From the sequence record PZ357121.2: a DNA stretch of 64,000 bases; one strand, given 5' to 3'. This DNA comes from a phage. The position numbers and the translations under genes are program-made. The first letter of the stretch is position 1. Every line of letters begins with the position of its first letter. Below, piece after piece: positions 3,368 through 64,000 of the stretch. Below the pieces are notes generated by a model. That model ran no database searches, had not been told where the DNA came from, and saw only the letters and a list, made by a program, of their open reading frames with translations.

Positions 3368-3938
3368 AAAAGTTTCGGATTTGTTCCCAATTCAGAGAAC
3401 GAAGATTATTACGAGAGTACTGAATTACTTCAATACCGGCTTGTTTAAGAATGTCTGCCCAATTTTCAGGAGATCTGTCATATAACTCAGCGTATACAAC
3501 CTTTTTAATACCTGACTGCGTAATAGCTTTAGTGCAATCAGGACATGGAGAAAGCGTAGTATATAACGTAGCACCTTCAATAGAATTACCTTTACGAGCT
3601 GCAAATAAAATTGCATTCAATTCTGCATGGATTTCGTTATTAGCAGACCATGCACTATGAGCAGCCCGATGTTCTTTAGCCAAAACAAAATTATCTGCCC
3701 GTCCAAATGCTGTAGTACCTTCTTTATGACCAGCAACGATGACCGGGCTTGGTTTATTCTTCAACCAACCGTTTTCGGATGCATGTTCGCAACAGTTTGT
3801 ACCACCTGAAGGAGAGCCATTATAACCTGTAGAAATAATGCGTCCATCTTTTTCAATGACTGCGCCAACTTTCCATGAACAACATTTTGATTCTTGAGAA
3901 ATCAGATATGCAATCTGAAGGTATGTGCTAGCTTTCAT
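3357..3938 (-). CDS. cd: dCMP deaminase
   Basis: 193 aa with zinc-dependent cytidine/dCMP deaminase motifs HAE (HAELNAILFAARKG) and PCxxC (SPCPDCTKAI); T4 cd position. Confidence 0.9.
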   Translation of the reverse strand: MKASTYLQIAYLISQESKCCSWKVGAVIEKDGRIISTGYNGSPSGGTNCCEHASENGWLKNKPSPVIVAGHKEGTTAFGRADNFVLAKEHRAAHSAWSANNEIHAELNAILFAARKGNSIEGATLYTTLSPCPDCTKAITQSGIKKVVYAELYDRSPENWADILKQAGIEVIQYSRNNLRSLNWEQIRNFCGE

Positions 3939-4930
3939 TATTGAACCTTATTAATATAAGTTAACAGCTCTTTAGTTTGTTCCCAACTGATGCACGCATC
4001 GGTAATGGAAACGCCATAGGACATATTATCAGAAATTTTTTGATTTCCTTCATGTAGGAACGATTCTATCATAATTCCTTTGACCAAATCATTAGATGCT
4101 AAATTTTTACCAATACCAATTTGATTGCTATAATGCCCAGCAGCGTTTGCATGGCTACAGTCAACCATTACATAATGATTCAGACCTACTGCACTTGCTT
4201 TGTTAGAAGCTTCTTGAATATCAGAAGAATGATAGTTCGGGCCGTTAGTCCCACCACGCAATACGATATGCGTATTCTGATTACCTTCAGCTTCAACAAT
4301 GCCTACAGTACCATCGACGTCCATACCCATATACCGATGAGGCCAGGCGGCACTATACATCGCGTCTGTAGCTACTTTAATAGAACCATTGGTTGCGTTC
4401 TTGAAGCCTACGCACATCGGTAGACCTGAAGCAATTTCACGATGTGTCTGACTTTCAGTCGTACGGGCGCCAATAGCAACCCATGAGAAAATACCAGAAA
4501 GATACTTAATCGTGAATGGGTCTAATACTTCAGTTGCTAATGGAAGTCCCATACGTAGAAGTTTACGACACAATGTTCGTGCAACTATAAGACCGTGGTT
4601 CATATCAAAACTTCCGTCAAGATATGGATCATTTACAAGACCTTTCCAACCTACGGTAGTTCGAGGCTTTTCAAAATAAACGCGCATCACTAACAGAACA
4701 TTAGGAAGACGAGTTTGAAGTTCAGCCAGACGTTTGCCGTATTCAACAGCAGCAATAGGGTCATGAATTGAACAAGGACCTACAACAATAAGTTTGCGTG
4801 GGTCTTCACCATTCATAATCGAATTAACTTGTTCGCGATGAGAAGCCACTTGTGATGCGTAAGCTTCCGACAAAGGAATAATCTCAGCCAGTTCTTTTGG
4901 AGAAATAAGTTTTCCGACGACAGGTAACAT
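3938..4930 (-). CDS. 3-deoxy-D-arabino-heptulosonate-7-phosphate (DAHP) synthase, class I AroG/AroF-like
   Basis: 330 aa with strong AroG-like blocks: VVGPCSIHDP, MRVYFEKPRTTVGWKGLVNDP, WVAIGARTTESQTHRE, GFKN, IVLRGG; start has AAGGA RBS; not part of the T4 gene set. Confidence 0.85.
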   Translation of the reverse strand: MLPVVGKLISPKELAEIIPLSEAYASQVASHREQVNSIMNGEDPRKLIVVGPCSIHDPIAAVEYGKRLAELQTRLPNVLLVMRVYFEKPRTTVGWKGLVNDPYLDGSFDMNHGLIVARTLCRKLLRMGLPLATEVLDPFTIKYLSGIFSWVAIGARTTESQTHREIASGLPMCVGFKNATNGSIKVATDAMYSAAWPHRYMGMDVDGTVGIVEAEGNQNTHIVLRGGTNGPNYHSSDIQEASNKASAVGLNHYVMVDCSHANAAGHYSNQIGIGKNLASNDLVKGIMIESFLHEGNQKISDNMSYGVSITDACISWEQTKELLTYINKVQ

Positions 4931-59762: not shown

Positions 59763-61205
59763 TTAAAATTTTAACTCATTGGCTAAGCTATCTAGGTCAG
59801 CACGTGTTGCTTTGGCTTTACCTACGCGTTCCGTACGATTCACCTCTGCCTGACGCATCTGAGCACCTGCGTTTTCATTTACTGTGTTAGGTGTGTTCAT
59901 GCCTTCTTGCTCAATCTCAATCCATTTCTGGTTGCCTTTGCGTACACCCATAAGGAATTTATTCCACTTATTTTTATCACCATATCGTGATTTGATTTGT
60001 TTGATAAGTTGTTGTTCAGCTTGTGCAAGTTCTTCGGTTTCAATTACAGCCAACATGAAATCTGCCGTTGCTGGTAAACCTGCTGATTCTGCAATATCAC
60101 TCATGTTCATATCCGAAGCATCCCATGCTGCACGTCCTACTTGAGCTGCAGTCCATAGAACTGTTTCAGATTCTACTGCTAATGCACGAAGTTCTTCTGC
60201 GATAGCTTTAACTAATGTGTAGCTATTTTCAGTGTAAACTCTGATACGACAAGACCCACAAATACCTAAGTAATCAACCATGATTACAGACGGCACAAAG
60301 TTCTTCTTAAGTTTTAACTCATTAAGCAATGCACGGAATGTATTAGCATTAGCTCCACCAGTAGGATACTGCTTAACTACTAAACGTCCTAATGTGGATT
60401 TTGAACGCCATTTTTCCATCTTGGCTTTATATTCAGCATAAGATACGTTACCATCATCGATATCGTCGAGCGATACGTCAAGCATGTTTGCATCTATACG
60501 CTTAGCACAAACTTCTTCAGCCATTTCCATAGAAATATAAAGAACATTATGACCTGTTTGAAGATAATCTGCAGCAAGTGAACAAAGGCCTAAAGATTTA
60601 CCAACGTTAACGCCTGCCATTAAAACGTTTAGTGTACCGGTTTCAGCACCACCTTTAGTGATTTTATTCAGAATGTTTAATTTGAACGGGACCTTACGTG
60701 CTTTGTTCAGATAAGAAAGCCAGCGTGCTTCATAGTCTTCCATCCAGTCGTGTCCAACATAACTATCAAACGAAATTGAAAGTGCTTGACGCATAATATC
60801 AGGAATAGCTCCTACGTCAGGCATTTTCTTGTTACGTTGTTCTGGAGGTAGTTCAGCATTAGACTGAATCTCAATGATTTTGGACGTAGCGTTATACATC
60901 GCTTTTTGCTGGACATATTTCTCAGTTTCTTTAACCAACCATTCGTGGTCTTCAGGAGTATCAGCCAATTTTTCAATTAGGTCTGAAGTTCCTTTATATT
61001 CGGCTTCAGTTAAAGAACTGTTATCTAAAGCCACCTTTAACGCATTGATAGATGGCATTGCATTATATTCGTTAACGTGGCTCTTTATAATTTTAAAGAC
61101 GTTTTTTGCCGGTCCACGCTCAAAATACTCAGAATCCATATAAGGCCAGACCTTAGAAAAATAAGCCTGGTCATATACTAGATGAGACAAAATAATTTCT
61201 ACCAC
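59763..61205 (-). CDS. 41: replicative DNA helicase gp41 (DnaB family)
   Basis: 480 aa, high similarity to T4 gp41 over full length, Walker A GVNVGKS. Confidence 0.95.
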   Translation of the reverse strand: MVEIILSHLVYDQAYFSKVWPYMDSEYFERGPAKNVFKIIKSHVNEYNAMPSINALKVALDNSSLTEAEYKGTSDLIEKLADTPEDHEWLVKETEKYVQQKAMYNATSKIIEIQSNAELPPEQRNKKMPDVGAIPDIMRQALSISFDSYVGHDWMEDYEARWLSYLNKARKVPFKLNILNKITKGGAETGTLNVLMAGVNVGKSLGLCSLAADYLQTGHNVLYISMEMAEEVCAKRIDANMLDVSLDDIDDGNVSYAEYKAKMEKWRSKSTLGRLVVKQYPTGGANANTFRALLNELKLKKNFVPSVIMVDYLGICGSCRIRVYTENSYTLVKAIAEELRALAVESETVLWTAAQVGRAAWDASDMNMSDIAESAGLPATADFMLAVIETEELAQAEQQLIKQIKSRYGDKNKWNKFLMGVRKGNQKWIEIEQEGMNTPNTVNENAGAQMRQAEVNRTERVGKAKATRADLDSLANELKF

Positions 61206-61214
61206 GATAACTCC

Positions 61215-61577
61215 TTAAAAGAATTTAAATTTTTTCTTGGTCCGTTCATTAAAAGCTTGTTGTACTTGCATTGTAACACATTTTTCAACATGTGGTGCAA
61301 GTTCTGCTTTTCTGTCCTGGTCAAGAACTGCAAAGTCCATTACGATTTTACCATCAACCCAGTCTAGTTTTGTAATATAGACTATATGATGAGAACCATC
61401 TTCAAGTGTAATCAGAATCTCTTGAATGACATTTTCCATTGCTGAACGGATAATTTTAAGAGATTCATTAAACACTCGTTCTTTGCGAATGTCTTCCCCT
61501 TCCGAAGAAGGGGATTCATCAACGATTTCTAGATTTAAATCATCGAGATTATTCATCGAAATCTTCCATTTCGTCAA
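61215..61577 (-). CDS. 40: gp40 head assembly protein
   Basis: T4 gp40-like from MNNLDDLNLEI...; true start probably the internal ATG near 61556. Confidence 0.65.
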   Translation of the reverse strand: MTKWKISMNNLDDLNLEIVDESPSSEGEDIRKERVFNESLKIIRSAMENVIQEILITLEDGSHHIVYITKLDWVDGKIVMDFAVLDQDRKAELAPHVEKCVTMQVQQAFNERTKKKFKFF

Positions 61578-62721
61578 GGTCGTTTTCTATATCTGCTGCA
61601 GACGGAGCATCAGAAGTTTTAACCGGAACTTTAGTTGTTGCTTTGCAATTAATAAGGTCGTTAACAGCGTCATCAACTTCTTTAATAGAAGAGATAGCAC
61701 CTAGTTTATATTTAGTTTCAATTGCATCTCGGAAAGGTTTGTGTTTAAACAACGGTCCCCAGAATTCTACACAATCAGTAGCTTTAGCACGCCATGATTT
61801 TTCTTCACGAATCATTTCGCCTGTTTCTTCGTCAAGGAATTCTCGAGCATACCACCCGGCTTTAGGCTTAACTACAAAACCAATTTCAGTTGCCATTTCT
61901 AACAAGCCACTGAATGGGTCAATACCACCATCGAAATTAACCGTGATTGGGAAAGTAGATTTTTCTTTAACGGTGCGAGATTTTTCTGCTTTCAACGTGA
62001 AGTCATAACCGGTCAATTCTGTACCTTCTTTAACCTGACGTTTAGAGATAAAGAATACAGTGTTAGCAGAGTAAAGAATACCTGTACCACCACCCATAAT
62101 CTCTTTAGGATACAATCCGCCGATTTCCATTGCTGTATGGTTGATTGCAACACATGGAATATCTTTAATAGTCAGATAAGGAGTCACAATGCGGAACAGA
62201 GATTTAAGTGCCTTAGCACGAGACATATCACCTACAACTTTCTCGTTCAATGCATCTTCAGTTTCTTTCTTAGATGCAGTATTACCGATTGAATCGATAA
62301 AGATAATAACTTTATCACCGCGTTCAATCGCGTCAAGCTGATTAGTCATATCAACTTTAAGTTGTTCGACAGATTGAATCGGAGTATGAACTACACGGTC
62401 TAAATCAACACCCATTGAACGAAAATAAGATTCTGAAGCACCAAATTCCGAATCATAGAACAAACAAATTGCATCTTTATATTTCTTCATATATGCTGCA
62501 ACCATGGTCAGTCCAAACAACGTTTTAAAGTGTTTAGAAGGAGCAGCAAAAATAGTTAAGCCTGATTGCAACCCAGCATTCAGTGCACCACCTAATGCAA
62601 TATTCAACATCGGAATACGAGTAGGGACTTCATCACGATTATTAAACAGCTTAGACTTAGTCAAGTCTGCAGTCATTTTAGAAGTAGAAGCTTTAATCAG
62701 ACGAGATTTTAAATCAGACAT
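61549..62721 (-). CDS. uvsX: UvsX recombinase (RecA family)
   Basis: 390 aa (T4 UvsX 391 aa), near-identical blocks (MSDLKSRLIKASTSK..., FDGGIDPFSGLL...). Confidence 0.95.
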   Translation of the reverse strand: MSDLKSRLIKASTSKMTADLTKSKLFNNRDEVPTRIPMLNIALGGALNAGLQSGLTIFAAPSKHFKTLFGLTMVAAYMKKYKDAICLFYDSEFGASESYFRSMGVDLDRVVHTPIQSVEQLKVDMTNQLDAIERGDKVIIFIDSIGNTASKKETEDALNEKVVGDMSRAKALKSLFRIVTPYLTIKDIPCVAINHTAMEIGGLYPKEIMGGGTGILYSANTVFFISKRQVKEGTELTGYDFTLKAEKSRTVKEKSTFPITVNFDGGIDPFSGLLEMATEIGFVVKPKAGWYAREFLDEETGEMIREEKSWRAKATDCVEFWGPLFKHKPFRDAIETKYKLGAISSIKEVDDAVNDLINCKATTKVPVKTSDAPSAADIENDLDEMEDFDE

Positions 62722-62820
62722 TGTATTTTTCCATAGGCATCATTATATTTTACTCATGTTTAAAAGATAAGACGATTATATACTAAGGGTTATACAGCAT
62801 TTAAAACTTTAAACAGGCTC

Positions 62821-63369
62821 TTAACGAGCCCATTTGATAATTTCTGTAATCAAATTATTACGTTCGCTTGCATTAAATCCTATAACTTTGTTAGCACCAT
62901 CATGATTAAGTAATTGATACGTTTGGATTTCGTTATGAATTGCAAACTCTTCAAAATACGAAATGACTGTATTAAACCTGAATGAAGACAAAGTAATAAG
63001 GTCGTCTTCAAAACTTTCAGTCATTTCGTTACGTGTTAAAATAATTGTGAACACATCATGGTTTTGGCAAAGACGAACATAATCCTGTTCATAAACGTCA
63101 AGAACCGAGTCCGCATCTTGTCGAATACGTCCATAAACCCAGTTACTAATATATCCACGGTCTAACAGATAAATCTTAGTAGGGTCTAAATAATTCAACA
63201 TCGTTTCGAAACAGCCAACTTCATTTCGAGACTTAACATCGAAACGTCCATCAACTGTTCGTTTAGGGAAATCAATCTTTACATATCTTTCACTAATTTC
63301 CATTATGTCATTAATGAAAGTTGTTTTACCAGCATTATCCGGGCCATCTACTAAAATAATTTTAGCCAT
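62821..63369 (-). CDS. P-loop kinase-like protein (unknown substrate)
   Basis: 182 aa with Walker A at the N-terminus (IILVDGPDNAGKTTF) and a downstream LLDRGY block reminiscent of small nucleotide/sugar kinases; sits where T4 carries beta-gt. Confidence 0.55.
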   Translation of the reverse strand: MAKIILVDGPDNAGKTTFINDIMEISERYVKIDFPKRTVDGRFDVKSRNEVGCFETMLNYLDPTKIYLLDRGYISNWVYGRIRQDADSVLDVYEQDYVRLCQNHDVFTIILTRNEMTESFEDDLITLSSFRFNTVISYFEEFAIHNEIQTYQLLNHDGANKVIGFNASERNNLITEIIKWAR

Positions 63370-63370
63370 T

Positions 63371-64000
63371 TTATTCCTCGATTACGACATCTTCATATTT
63401 AGGTATATTATACGGCGAAGAAATTAAAGCATTAAAGTAGATGAACTCGCCAAGACCTGGATGGAATACTTCTTCAGGATTTTCGAAGTATTGAATCTTC
63501 GGACGTCCTTTAAGAATTTGATAGTACTCAGTTTTAGTTGGTTTAAAAATTCGAATCAGCGCTTCTTCAGGATACTTATTTCTGTCGAAGCTATTATTTG
63601 GATCGGTTATATAAAGCGGTTGACCTAATTGAATTGCACATTCAACCACTTGTTCAAAACGATAGCACGGGTCACTAATTCGAAATGGATGAAAAATACC
63701 ATCTAGATGAATAGGAGCCAAATCACCTACAAGACGCTGCATGATGGAAGGACGTATAACTTTCTGCGTTACGATAATCTTATTACCATCTGCACCTGCG
63801 TTAACCAGCACTTCTTTTTGACGTTCATTCAACACAGTAGTTTGAAGTGAACGATTAACAGACAACATGTCGGTTTTTAAGAATTCGTCAATATAAAAAC
63901 GTGGTTTATTAGGGTCTGCAGTGATATTGAAATTGAATTCTACGTCAAAATTGCCGTCATATCCAGTGATATCTGTGATTAGAAAATCACAATCATAATA
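63371..64000 (-). CDS. partial CDS of unknown function, 5' end beyond the window
   Basis: The reading frame stays open upstream of the track ATG (63868) to the window edge, so at least 209 codons; not recognisably beta-gt or dCMP hydroxymethylase by eye. Confidence 0.45.
   Translation of the reverse strand, partial: YYDCDFLITDITGYDGNFDVEFNFNITADPNKPRFYIDEFLKTDMLSVNRSLQTTVLNERQKEVLVNAGADGNKIIVTQKVIRPSIMQRLVGDLAPIHLDGIFHPFRISDPCYRFEQVVECAIQLGQPLYITDPNNSFDRNKYPEEALIRIFKPTKTEYYQILKGRPKIQYFENPEEVFHPGLGEFIYFNALISSPYNIPKYEDVVIEE

Follow-up and report, generated by a model that had tools for sequence, protein, structure and literature searches.

The closest described relative of the two genes considered here, which lie upstream of uvsX in a 64,000-nucleotide stretch of phage DNA (record PZ357121.2, hereafter the window) and occupy its positions 62,821 to 64,000, is the modification cluster gp45-gp55 of phage RB69 (Lee et al. 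2026, NAR, PMC13326640). An RB69-specific module between the polymerase gene and uvsX had been flagged as a likely source of UDP-arabinose (Thomas et al. 2018), and DNA of RB69 and of Acinetobacter phage DLP3 was found to carry mono- and poly-arabinosylated 5-hydroxycytosine (5hoC), not hydroxymethylcytosine, the sugar being arabinofuranose (Araf); in virion DNA of RB69, mono- and di-arabinosyl-5hoC replace cytosine (Lee et al. 2026, PMC13326640). Arabinosylated 5hoC has been demonstrated by LC-MS (liquid chromatography coupled to mass spectrometry) and nuclear magnetic resonance in virion DNA of RB69, DLP3 and NP, and by analogy with these three phages it is predicted in virion DNA of Escherichia phage F2, a close relative of RB69 and, at 100% identity, the source of the window. 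RB69 gp48, a homologue of the gene 42 product, is a flavin-binding, O2-using synthase of 5-hydroxy-dCMP (5hodCMP), and the gene-1-type kinase gp159 converts 5hodCMP to the diphosphate 5hodCDP; the functions of gp45 ('nucleotide kinase') and gp46:47 ('arabinosyltransferase 1') are predictions only (Lee et al. 2026, PMC13326640).

The genes of the window encode a 182-aa P-loop kinase and a 299-aa glycosyltransferase (GT; Table 1), and their sequences mark them as orthologues of RB69 gp45 and gp46:47, already known rather than new. The stretch from 62700 to 64000 is 100% identical to F2, 98.8% to phage HY126 and 98.2% to RB69. The kinase is identical to RB69ORF045c at 179 of 182 residues, and the GT to RB69 ORF047c at 177 of 182 and to ORF046c at 116 of 116. 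In the RB69 GenBank record the GT gene is split into these two open reading frames (ORFs) by one extra A (cac-cta versus cacacta; RB69 locus L002:6990-7060), whereas it is intact in F2 and most relatives. Gene order and fold assignments are the same in RB69 and F2 (thymidylate-kinase fold; GT-B fold matching 3c4q and 6kih). The F2 homologue of the synthase is identical to RB69 gp48 at 235 of 238 residues and matches the solved structures 9iqc, 9ir2 and 9iqu at E 3e-161. Near-identical PDB structures thus exist for the synthase and for a second, 366-aa GT of the pathway (9iqz, 9ir0), the window copy of which is near-identical to the 'phage HY126 glycosyltransferase' 9iqz; a sequence search of PDB chains found no near-identical structure for the kinase or the 299-aa GT, only P-loop noise. 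HY126 was reportedly characterised by He et al. in 2026 (Nat Chem Biol).

Judged by identity and position, the two genes are the last two of the RB69-type gp45-gp55 cytosine-hypermodification operon, between the DNA polymerase gene and uvsX. Annotation and Pfam give the F2 order as gene 43, SIS isomerase, a small ORF, a 561-aa NTP-transferase/kinase, HAD phosphatase, Peptidase_U32, small ORF049, ThyA homologue, 299-aa GT, 182-aa kinase and uvsX, so that the ThyA-family synthase and the UDP-arabinose genes (isomerase, NTP-transferase/kinase with a PF00483 domain, phosphatase) all lie between gene 43 and uvsX. In RB69-like phages the glucosylation gene of T4 is thus swapped for a different sugar-modification module at this site. 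Because the module was described in 2018 and 2025-2026, the finding itself establishes nothing new.

The order in T4 is 43, imm.1, imm, 42, beta-gt, segA and uvsX. An earlier note on this DNA had taken beta-gt as the gene immediately upstream of T4 uvsX and had assigned its slot to the Walker-A protein and to a larger ORF leaving the window. All its coordinates are confirmed, but segA is directly upstream of T4 uvsX, followed by beta-gt and then gene 42, and the slot comparison is sound by position only. The note's statement that the partial ORF matches no T4 protein is correct at the sequence level: hhalign gives a probability of 0.6% against T4 beta-gt, and hidden Markov models (HMMs) of the kinase and GT families have no match in either T4 region searched, uvsX-43 and the surroundings of gene 1. 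Completed beyond position 64000 in F2, the ORF is 299 aa long and is neither beta-gt nor gene 42; a gene-42 homologue directly precedes it and shares one base with it. The kinase belongs with the modification module and is not an unrelated accessory gene. The partial gene that the note called unknown is unrelated to beta-gt in sequence, but its predicted structure is itself GT-B, so that the slot would still hold a DNA-modification GT. T4 beta-gt and the 299-aa GT both lie between a gene-42 homologue and uvsX (with segA added in T4), and, if the role proposed below is right, both glycosylate 5-substituted cytosines in phage DNA. The dispersed pathway suggested by the note, for a non-glucose sugar or for nucleotide metabolism, is right at its core: it combines attachment of Araf to 5hoC with nucleotide metabolism and includes the distant GT of 366 aa, as the note proposed, but probably not the 3-deoxy-D-arabino-heptulosonate 7-phosphate (DAHP) synthase discussed further below.

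The preferred reading, with a probability of about 0.6, is that the synthase makes 5hodCMP (demonstrated for RB69 gp48), the 182-aa kinase phosphorylates the modified dCMP, and the 299-aa GT adds the first alpha-Araf. The kinase would be dedicated to a non-canonical dCMP derivative and would take 5hodCMP to the diphosphate en route to the polymerase, a role less secure than that of the GT, which would use UDP-Araf as donor and attach Araf to the modified cytosine, at its 5-hydroxyl, as the first, alpha-linked sugar. The second arabinose is proposed to be added by the 366-aa GT, a separate protein with 11% identity to the 299-aa GT, encoded near the topoisomerase gene. The kinase and synthase would mirror the pairing of T4 gene 1 and gene 42, in which likewise a non-canonical dCMP is the product of a ThyA-family enzyme and is raised to the diphosphate by a kinase of the phage. 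The two kinases are of different families, since the HMM of the 182-aa kinase has no match in the T4 gene-1 region; RB69-type phages have both a gene-1-type and a thymidylate-kinase-like enzyme.

Structures were predicted because PDB sequence searches of both proteins gave nothing beyond P-loop noise. The AlphaFold2 model of the 299-aa GT (predicted local distance difference test, pLDDT, 94.5; 40-sequence alignment) has two Rossmann-like domains and an interdomain cleft, which constitute a GT-B fold. Its best structural matches include MshA, sucrose-phosphate synthase (SPS) and BGluT; the top matches do not include T4 beta-gt. Even with the limit set at E<=1, the protein has no match in Pfam or NCBIfam, Glycos_transf_1 and Glyco_trans_4 of the GT4 enzymes included, and none of the 138 clusters of its homologues has a Pfam domain. 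Compared with retaining GT-B enzymes of family GT4 (MshA, BshA, PimA, SPS), it is 8-12% identical and lacks 60-100 residues of their length. Invariant positions are concentrated near the N-terminus, in the motif SMRSYETGxY...KDGN, for which we know of no counterpart, and in the C-terminal domain at R197, K246 and H270-P-G272 (E275 comes after these in F2). The latter group may lie where GT4 enzymes bind the donor diphosphate. The protein would be a GT4-like, probably retaining, GT-B glycosyltransferase. It is proposed to be the base-proximal arabinosyltransferase because DNA of phage Thanatos is mono-arabinosylated and Thanatos has no arabinosyltransferase other than TH1_063, the orthologue of this GT (Lee et al. 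2026, PMC13326640); the authors of the Thanatos study were themselves unable to assign a configuration to the attached sugar.

The kinase matches PHROG 761 ('thymidylate kinase') at 4e-45. The top Foldseek matches of its AlphaFold2 model (pLDDT 86.6) are thymidylate kinases, dCK and dNK, with a probability of 1.0 and TM scores of 0.5-0.64 (3ld9, 2v54, 3tmk, 1e98). Compared with PDB chains, the family profile aligns G-x-D-x-x-GKTT...FPxR with vaccinia, yeast and human thymidylate kinases (TMPKs) and DR(Y/G)xxSxxxY with the yeast enzyme. D11, G14, K15, K36, D70, R71, R113, D122 and D123 are invariant in 22 members, very distant ones included, and R113 may be a lid residue. The kinase shares with type-I TMPKs (human, yeast, vaccinia) the fold and, in these alignments, apparently the motifs GxDxxGKTT, FPxR and DR(Y/G)xxSxxxY, but an invariant Asn stands in its P-loop in place of the Arg or Lys of those enzymes, the positions that contact the base are variable, and, unlike type-I TMPKs, it is limited to phages with the 5hoC module. 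Its homologues were found on phage contigs only, and an exhaustive profile search returned 45 representatives of the family at E<1e-10.

Five distant kinase relatives (E 1e-11 to 1e-19; P0178, P0180, P0185, P0187 and P0189) have an extra C-terminal domain, recognised as HhH-GPD by Pfam in two of the five. All five share the pattern GxGKYxxDS...DKEL, mostly as GLGKYAxDS...EPxDKEL, which resembles MBD4-type glycosylases. On a contig from a metagenome-assembled genome (L012:6001-7074), the gene for one such fusion lies between a ThyA homologue and genes for FMN reductase, SIS and AfhE-like proteins.

Synthase, GT and kinase form one conserved, tightly packed module, linked even in very distant phages. 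By tblastn, 344 phage records contain the kinase and 349 the GT, and the counts per genus are near-identical; uvsX is found in 1848 records. In F2 the GT stop codon (TAA), one spacer base and the kinase ATG follow one another (Table 1), and GAGG sits within the final codons of the GT gene ahead of that ATG; from the sequence, this packing suggests translational coupling. The two genes overlap in Thanatos, DLP1 and KLB31 and at loci L004, L006, L010 and L011. Four metagenomic phages (contigs of 122-356 kb) have synthase, GT and kinase in the same arrangement, with GTs of only 36-39% identity and kinase HMM matches at E 1e-25 to 1e-30. In JS10 the order is kinase, synthase, GT, and on contig L012 the kinase relative follows the synthase with no GT in view. 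In Rhizobium phage RL38J1, which has hexose-modified 5hoC, the synthase and a GT (hhalign 99.3%) are followed by a TMPK-fold protein with weak sequence similarity to the kinase; this protein, RL38J1_214, was rejected as a clear kinase orthologue (hhalign 47% only) and kept as support by position and fold, the fold being that given by Lee et al. Because the linkage of synthase and kinase persists across the compared phages and contigs, the constant partner of the kinase is the 5hodCMP synthase.

Several observations weigh against the preferred reading, chief among them that gp159 of RB69 already converts 5hodCMP to 5hodCDP (Lee et al. 2026, PMC13326640), which makes a second 5hodCMP kinase look redundant. 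The DLP3 orthologue of the GT was inactive on 5hoC-containing DNA with UDP-Araf or UDP-arabinopyranose (UDP-Arap), and by the authors' own account their results do not distinguish the mononucleotide from DNA as the acceptor of the first sugar (Lee et al. 2026, PMC13326640). Thanatos TH1_063 glycosylated none of DNA, dCMP, dCTP and cytosine, all of them non-hydroxylated acceptors, and was reported to form UDP-xylose from UTP and xylose-1-phosphate. Neither the kinase nor the GT passes any curated family threshold: the GT is without a Pfam or NCBIfam match, and the kinase has no match to the Pfam TMPK family (PF02223) at E<=1 and scores 15.6 bits against TIGR00041 (cut-off 83.25), through the P-loop only. 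Kinase R37, aligned with the phosphate-binding Arg of FPxR, is not conserved. Because the curated TMPK models failed and this arginine is not conserved, the kinase is classified, from its modelled fold, as probably working like a deoxynucleoside monophosphate (dNMP) kinase and not as a thymidylate kinase.

The redundancy would disappear if the first sugar were added before replication. On this account, which is unlikely on present evidence, the GT arabinosylates 5-hydroxy-dCMP, the kinase is dedicated to arabinosyl-5-hydroxy-dCMP, the polymerase inserts the sugar-bearing dCTP analogue, and DNA itself receives the second sugar alone. A bulky arabinosyl substrate could be beyond a gene-1-type kinase, so that a second kinase would be kept although gp159 handles 5hodCMP, and the abutting or overlapping of GT and kinase genes in most lineages would be accounted for, as would the inactivity of the DLP3 orthologue on 5hoC-DNA while later GTs act on DNA. 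The timing of the first sugar is left explicitly open by Lee et al. 2026 (PMC13326640). The GT family is acidic (median pI 5.1, versus 9.05 for T4 beta-gt), and its structural matches MshA, SPS and BGluT are enzymes with small phosphorylated or heterocyclic acceptors. Protein charge was dropped as a discriminator between DNA and nucleotide acceptors as weak, the presumed DNA-acting second GT being mildly acidic too. 5-Hydroxycytosine is a substrate of base-excision repair, and free 5hoC in DNA would be a substrate of host endonuclease III or Nei, which also favours early glycosylation. Such a route would, to our knowledge, be the first known for glycosylating a DNA base before replication.

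The preferred reading, with the kinase acting on 5hodCMP itself, leaves a puzzle: a broad dNMP kinase is already present, yet a TMPK-like one is kept welded to the synthase and the first GT, an arrangement that persists across phages sharing little else. The substrate of the kinase would decide whether the first sugar goes on the nucleotide or on DNA, and that timing bears on how these phages avoid exposing 5-hydroxycytosine.

It is improbable that the kinase acts on something other than a nucleotide, whether as a sugar kinase of the arabinose pathway, the role entertained for it in the earlier note, or by phosphorylating a hydroxyl group of DNA or of the sugar attached to it. The broad P-loop kinase fold includes DNA- and hydroxyl-directed kinases, a phosphate on the sugar would be lost in the phosphatase step of standard nucleoside LC-MS, and the distant relatives are fused to the HhH-GPD domain, which is DNA-glycosylase-like. 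The fused domain has no homologue in the window or at the F2 locus (L001), and the fusion was not adopted as evidence of a DNA-acting kinase. Against such a role, the kinase shares the motifs of type-I TMPKs, including the DR motif and the P-loop Asp, which in those enzymes touches the deoxyribose 3'-OH. A sugar kinase is already present in the pathway, since the gp52:53-type protein, encoded further upstream, ends in an APH-like domain with that role, and the window protein is better described as a nucleotide kinase of the TMPK fold. JS10 keeps the kinase though it is without the isomerase, the galactose-using RL38J1 has its weakly homologous TMPK-fold protein in the same position, and O-glycosylation from an NDP-sugar requires no phosphorylation of the acceptor.

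A plain thymidylate kinase supplying dTDP for an AT-rich genome, as in the RefSeq annotation, is highly improbable. The name is used by both RefSeq and PHROG, and TMPKs are the best structural matches. The curated dTMP-kinase models nevertheless failed, and no match to the kinase was found in the T4 regions examined (uvsX-43 and around gene 1). Its distribution follows that of the 5hoC GT almost one to one and not that of T4-like phages generally, as counted by uvsX, which argues against a housekeeping role; dTMP is already covered by a T4-type gene 1 (by annotation), and in all the lineages examined the gene is part of the modification operon.

There is only a very slight chance that the 299-aa protein is a UDP-pentose pyrophosphorylase making the donor, as the in-vitro LC-MS product of TH1_063 (47.8% identical to the F2 protein) would suggest, for the fold is GT-B and not that of a nucleotidyltransferase, the cluster already has an NTP-transferase domain (PF00483) assigned to UDP-arabinose synthesis by He et al., as cited in Lee et al. 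2026 (PMC13326640), Thanatos has no other arabinosyltransferase, and the TH1_063 result is a single end-point assay with a surrogate sugar.

Table 1. Features of the window and of the adjoining F2 sequence (locus L001)
Feature	Position	Strand	Remarks
AroFGH-type DAHP synthase	3938-4930	minus	Pfam DAHP_synth_1 1e-74; TIGR00034 aroFGH 427 bits (cut-off 173)
Second GT of the pathway, 366 aa	42502-43602	minus	RB69 ORF003c / gp3 type
gp41 helicase	59763-61205	minus	
gp40	61215-61577	minus	
uvsX recombinase	61549-62721	minus	Positional landmark; Pfam T4_UVSX_C 1e-38, RecA 2e-11
Stem-loop GGCTC-GTTAA-GAGCC, then T-rich tract	62800-62830	minus	Across the kinase stop codon; read from the sequence
182-aa P-loop kinase, thymidylate-kinase fold	62821-63369	minus	Orthologue of RB69 gp45 / DLP3 gp78 / Thanatos TH1_064
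D70-R71 of kinase motif LDRGYISNxVY	63157-63162	minus	HMMER-aligned to the DRY motif of yeast TMPK (1tmk), VMDRYVYSGVAYS
Walker-A / P-loop GPDNAGKT, kinase residues 9-16	63322-63345	minus	Aligned to G(L/V)D(K/R)xGK(T/S)T of vaccinia, yeast and human TMPK
GT stop, spacer base and kinase ATG	63367-63373	minus	ATCGAGGAATAAAATGGCT; stop codon 63371-63373
299-aa GT-B glycosyltransferase, C-terminal 209 codons and stop	63371-64000	minus	Orthologue of RB69 gp46:47 / DLP3 gp79 / Thanatos TH1_063; N-terminal 90 codons outside the window; full F2 ORF at L001:6672-7571
Peptidase_U32 protein, gp50-type	L001:8566-9735	minus	F2, just past the window end; Pfam PF01136, 42 bits (gathering threshold 22.4)

The stem-loop at the end of the kinase gene is a weak feature: a formal scan of 62400-64000 for promoters and terminators did not pass it and gave no result exceeding shuffled expectation. 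As read from the sequence, it may possibly mark the end of the modification operon ahead of uvsX.

The Peptidase_U32 protein of the cluster may offer a second route to the hydroxylated base. The loci behind this reading are the DAHP synthase gene of the window, L001:8566-9735 of F2, L013:4983-6394, L003:7462-8852 of Thanatos-1 and L022:6001-7891. U32 proteins include RlhA, which makes 5-hydroxycytidine in 23S rRNA, TrhP, which makes 5-hydroxyuridine in tRNA, and UbiU/UbiV, all of them prephenate-dependent, O2-independent hydroxylases; prephenate is the product of chorismate mutase. A chorismate mutase gene (Pfam CM_2) adjoins the U32 gene in KLB31 and Thanatos (38.5 and 34.7 bits, threshold 27). 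DAHP synthase is found in 213 records, with a distribution parallel to that of the U32 gene. One phage contig, unrelated to these, has a homologue of U32 (55% identical, with 92% of the F2 protein aligned) followed directly by a DAHP synthase of another subclass, type I-beta, and on two further contigs the U32 gene comes directly after a dCMP deaminase gene. Identity of the U32 protein is 82% or more throughout the 222 phage records with the gene, while the neighbouring GT and kinase drop to 48% and 43%. Most positions that hold Fe-S ligands in UbiU, RlhA and TrhP are cysteines in the phage U32 proteins too. Direct profile comparison with E. coli RlhA and TrhP gave a probability of only 1-2%, with a shallow profile; the U32 assignment rests on Pfam PF01136. 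The gp50-type protein was labelled 'sugar or heterocycle reductase' by Lee et al. 2026 (PMC13326640).

These observations suggest that the U32 protein, like RlhA, TrhP and UbiUV, depends on prephenate rather than O2 and hydroxylates cytosine at C5. The DAHP synthase of the window, which the earlier note had tentatively linked to sugar synthesis, is an AroFGH-type shikimate enzyme and probably feeds prephenate to the U32 enzyme of the cluster instead. That an O2-independent route to 5-hydroxycytosine backs up the O2-dependent synthase is proposed tentatively, at somewhat less than even odds; if true, the combination of U32 protein, chorismate mutase and DAHP synthase could explain how an O2-dependent modification is made without oxygen in gut phages. 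Within the library searched, no paper was found linking phage U32, prephenate and O2-independent cytosine hydroxylation. A strict rule relating U32 to aerobic or anaerobic hosts was rejected: the Acinetobacter phages are without U32, but so is coliphage JS10.

The small gene between the U32 and synthase genes has an in-frame stop in F2, leaving 49 aa and a remainder (L001:8330-8569, minus strand). The 79-aa RB69ORF049c (L002:8330-8569) has no CM_2 match, unlike the proteins in the equivalent position in KLB31 (79 aa) and Thanatos (85 aa); a chorismate mutase may be decaying in Mosigviruses.

The arabinosylation cluster is modular. JS10 (Dhakavirus) is without the SIS isomerase, U32 and chorismate mutase and has a permuted gene order; Acinetobacter phage DLP1 has the isomerase and two extra GTs, and U32 is absent. 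In distant phages a Flavodoxin_2 or FMN_red gene lies next to that of the putative ThyA-type 5hodCMP synthase (L006:4739-5293; L011:3715-4275; L012:7068-7613), which fits a requirement for reduced flavin; the enterobacterial phages are without such a gene.

Two further observations concern the neighbourhood of uvsX. The RefSeq record of F2 (NC_054913) is filed under Tequatrovirus, yet the region is 98% identical to RB69, a Mosigvirus, and carries the arabinosylation cluster that the uvsX-43 region of T4 is without. In Thanatos-1 the recombinase gene, the counterpart of uvsX by position, is split in the annotation into two parts that enclose a gene for a GIY-YIG homing endonuclease (L003:8917-11317); the homing endonuclease gene segA sits in the same neighbourhood in T4.

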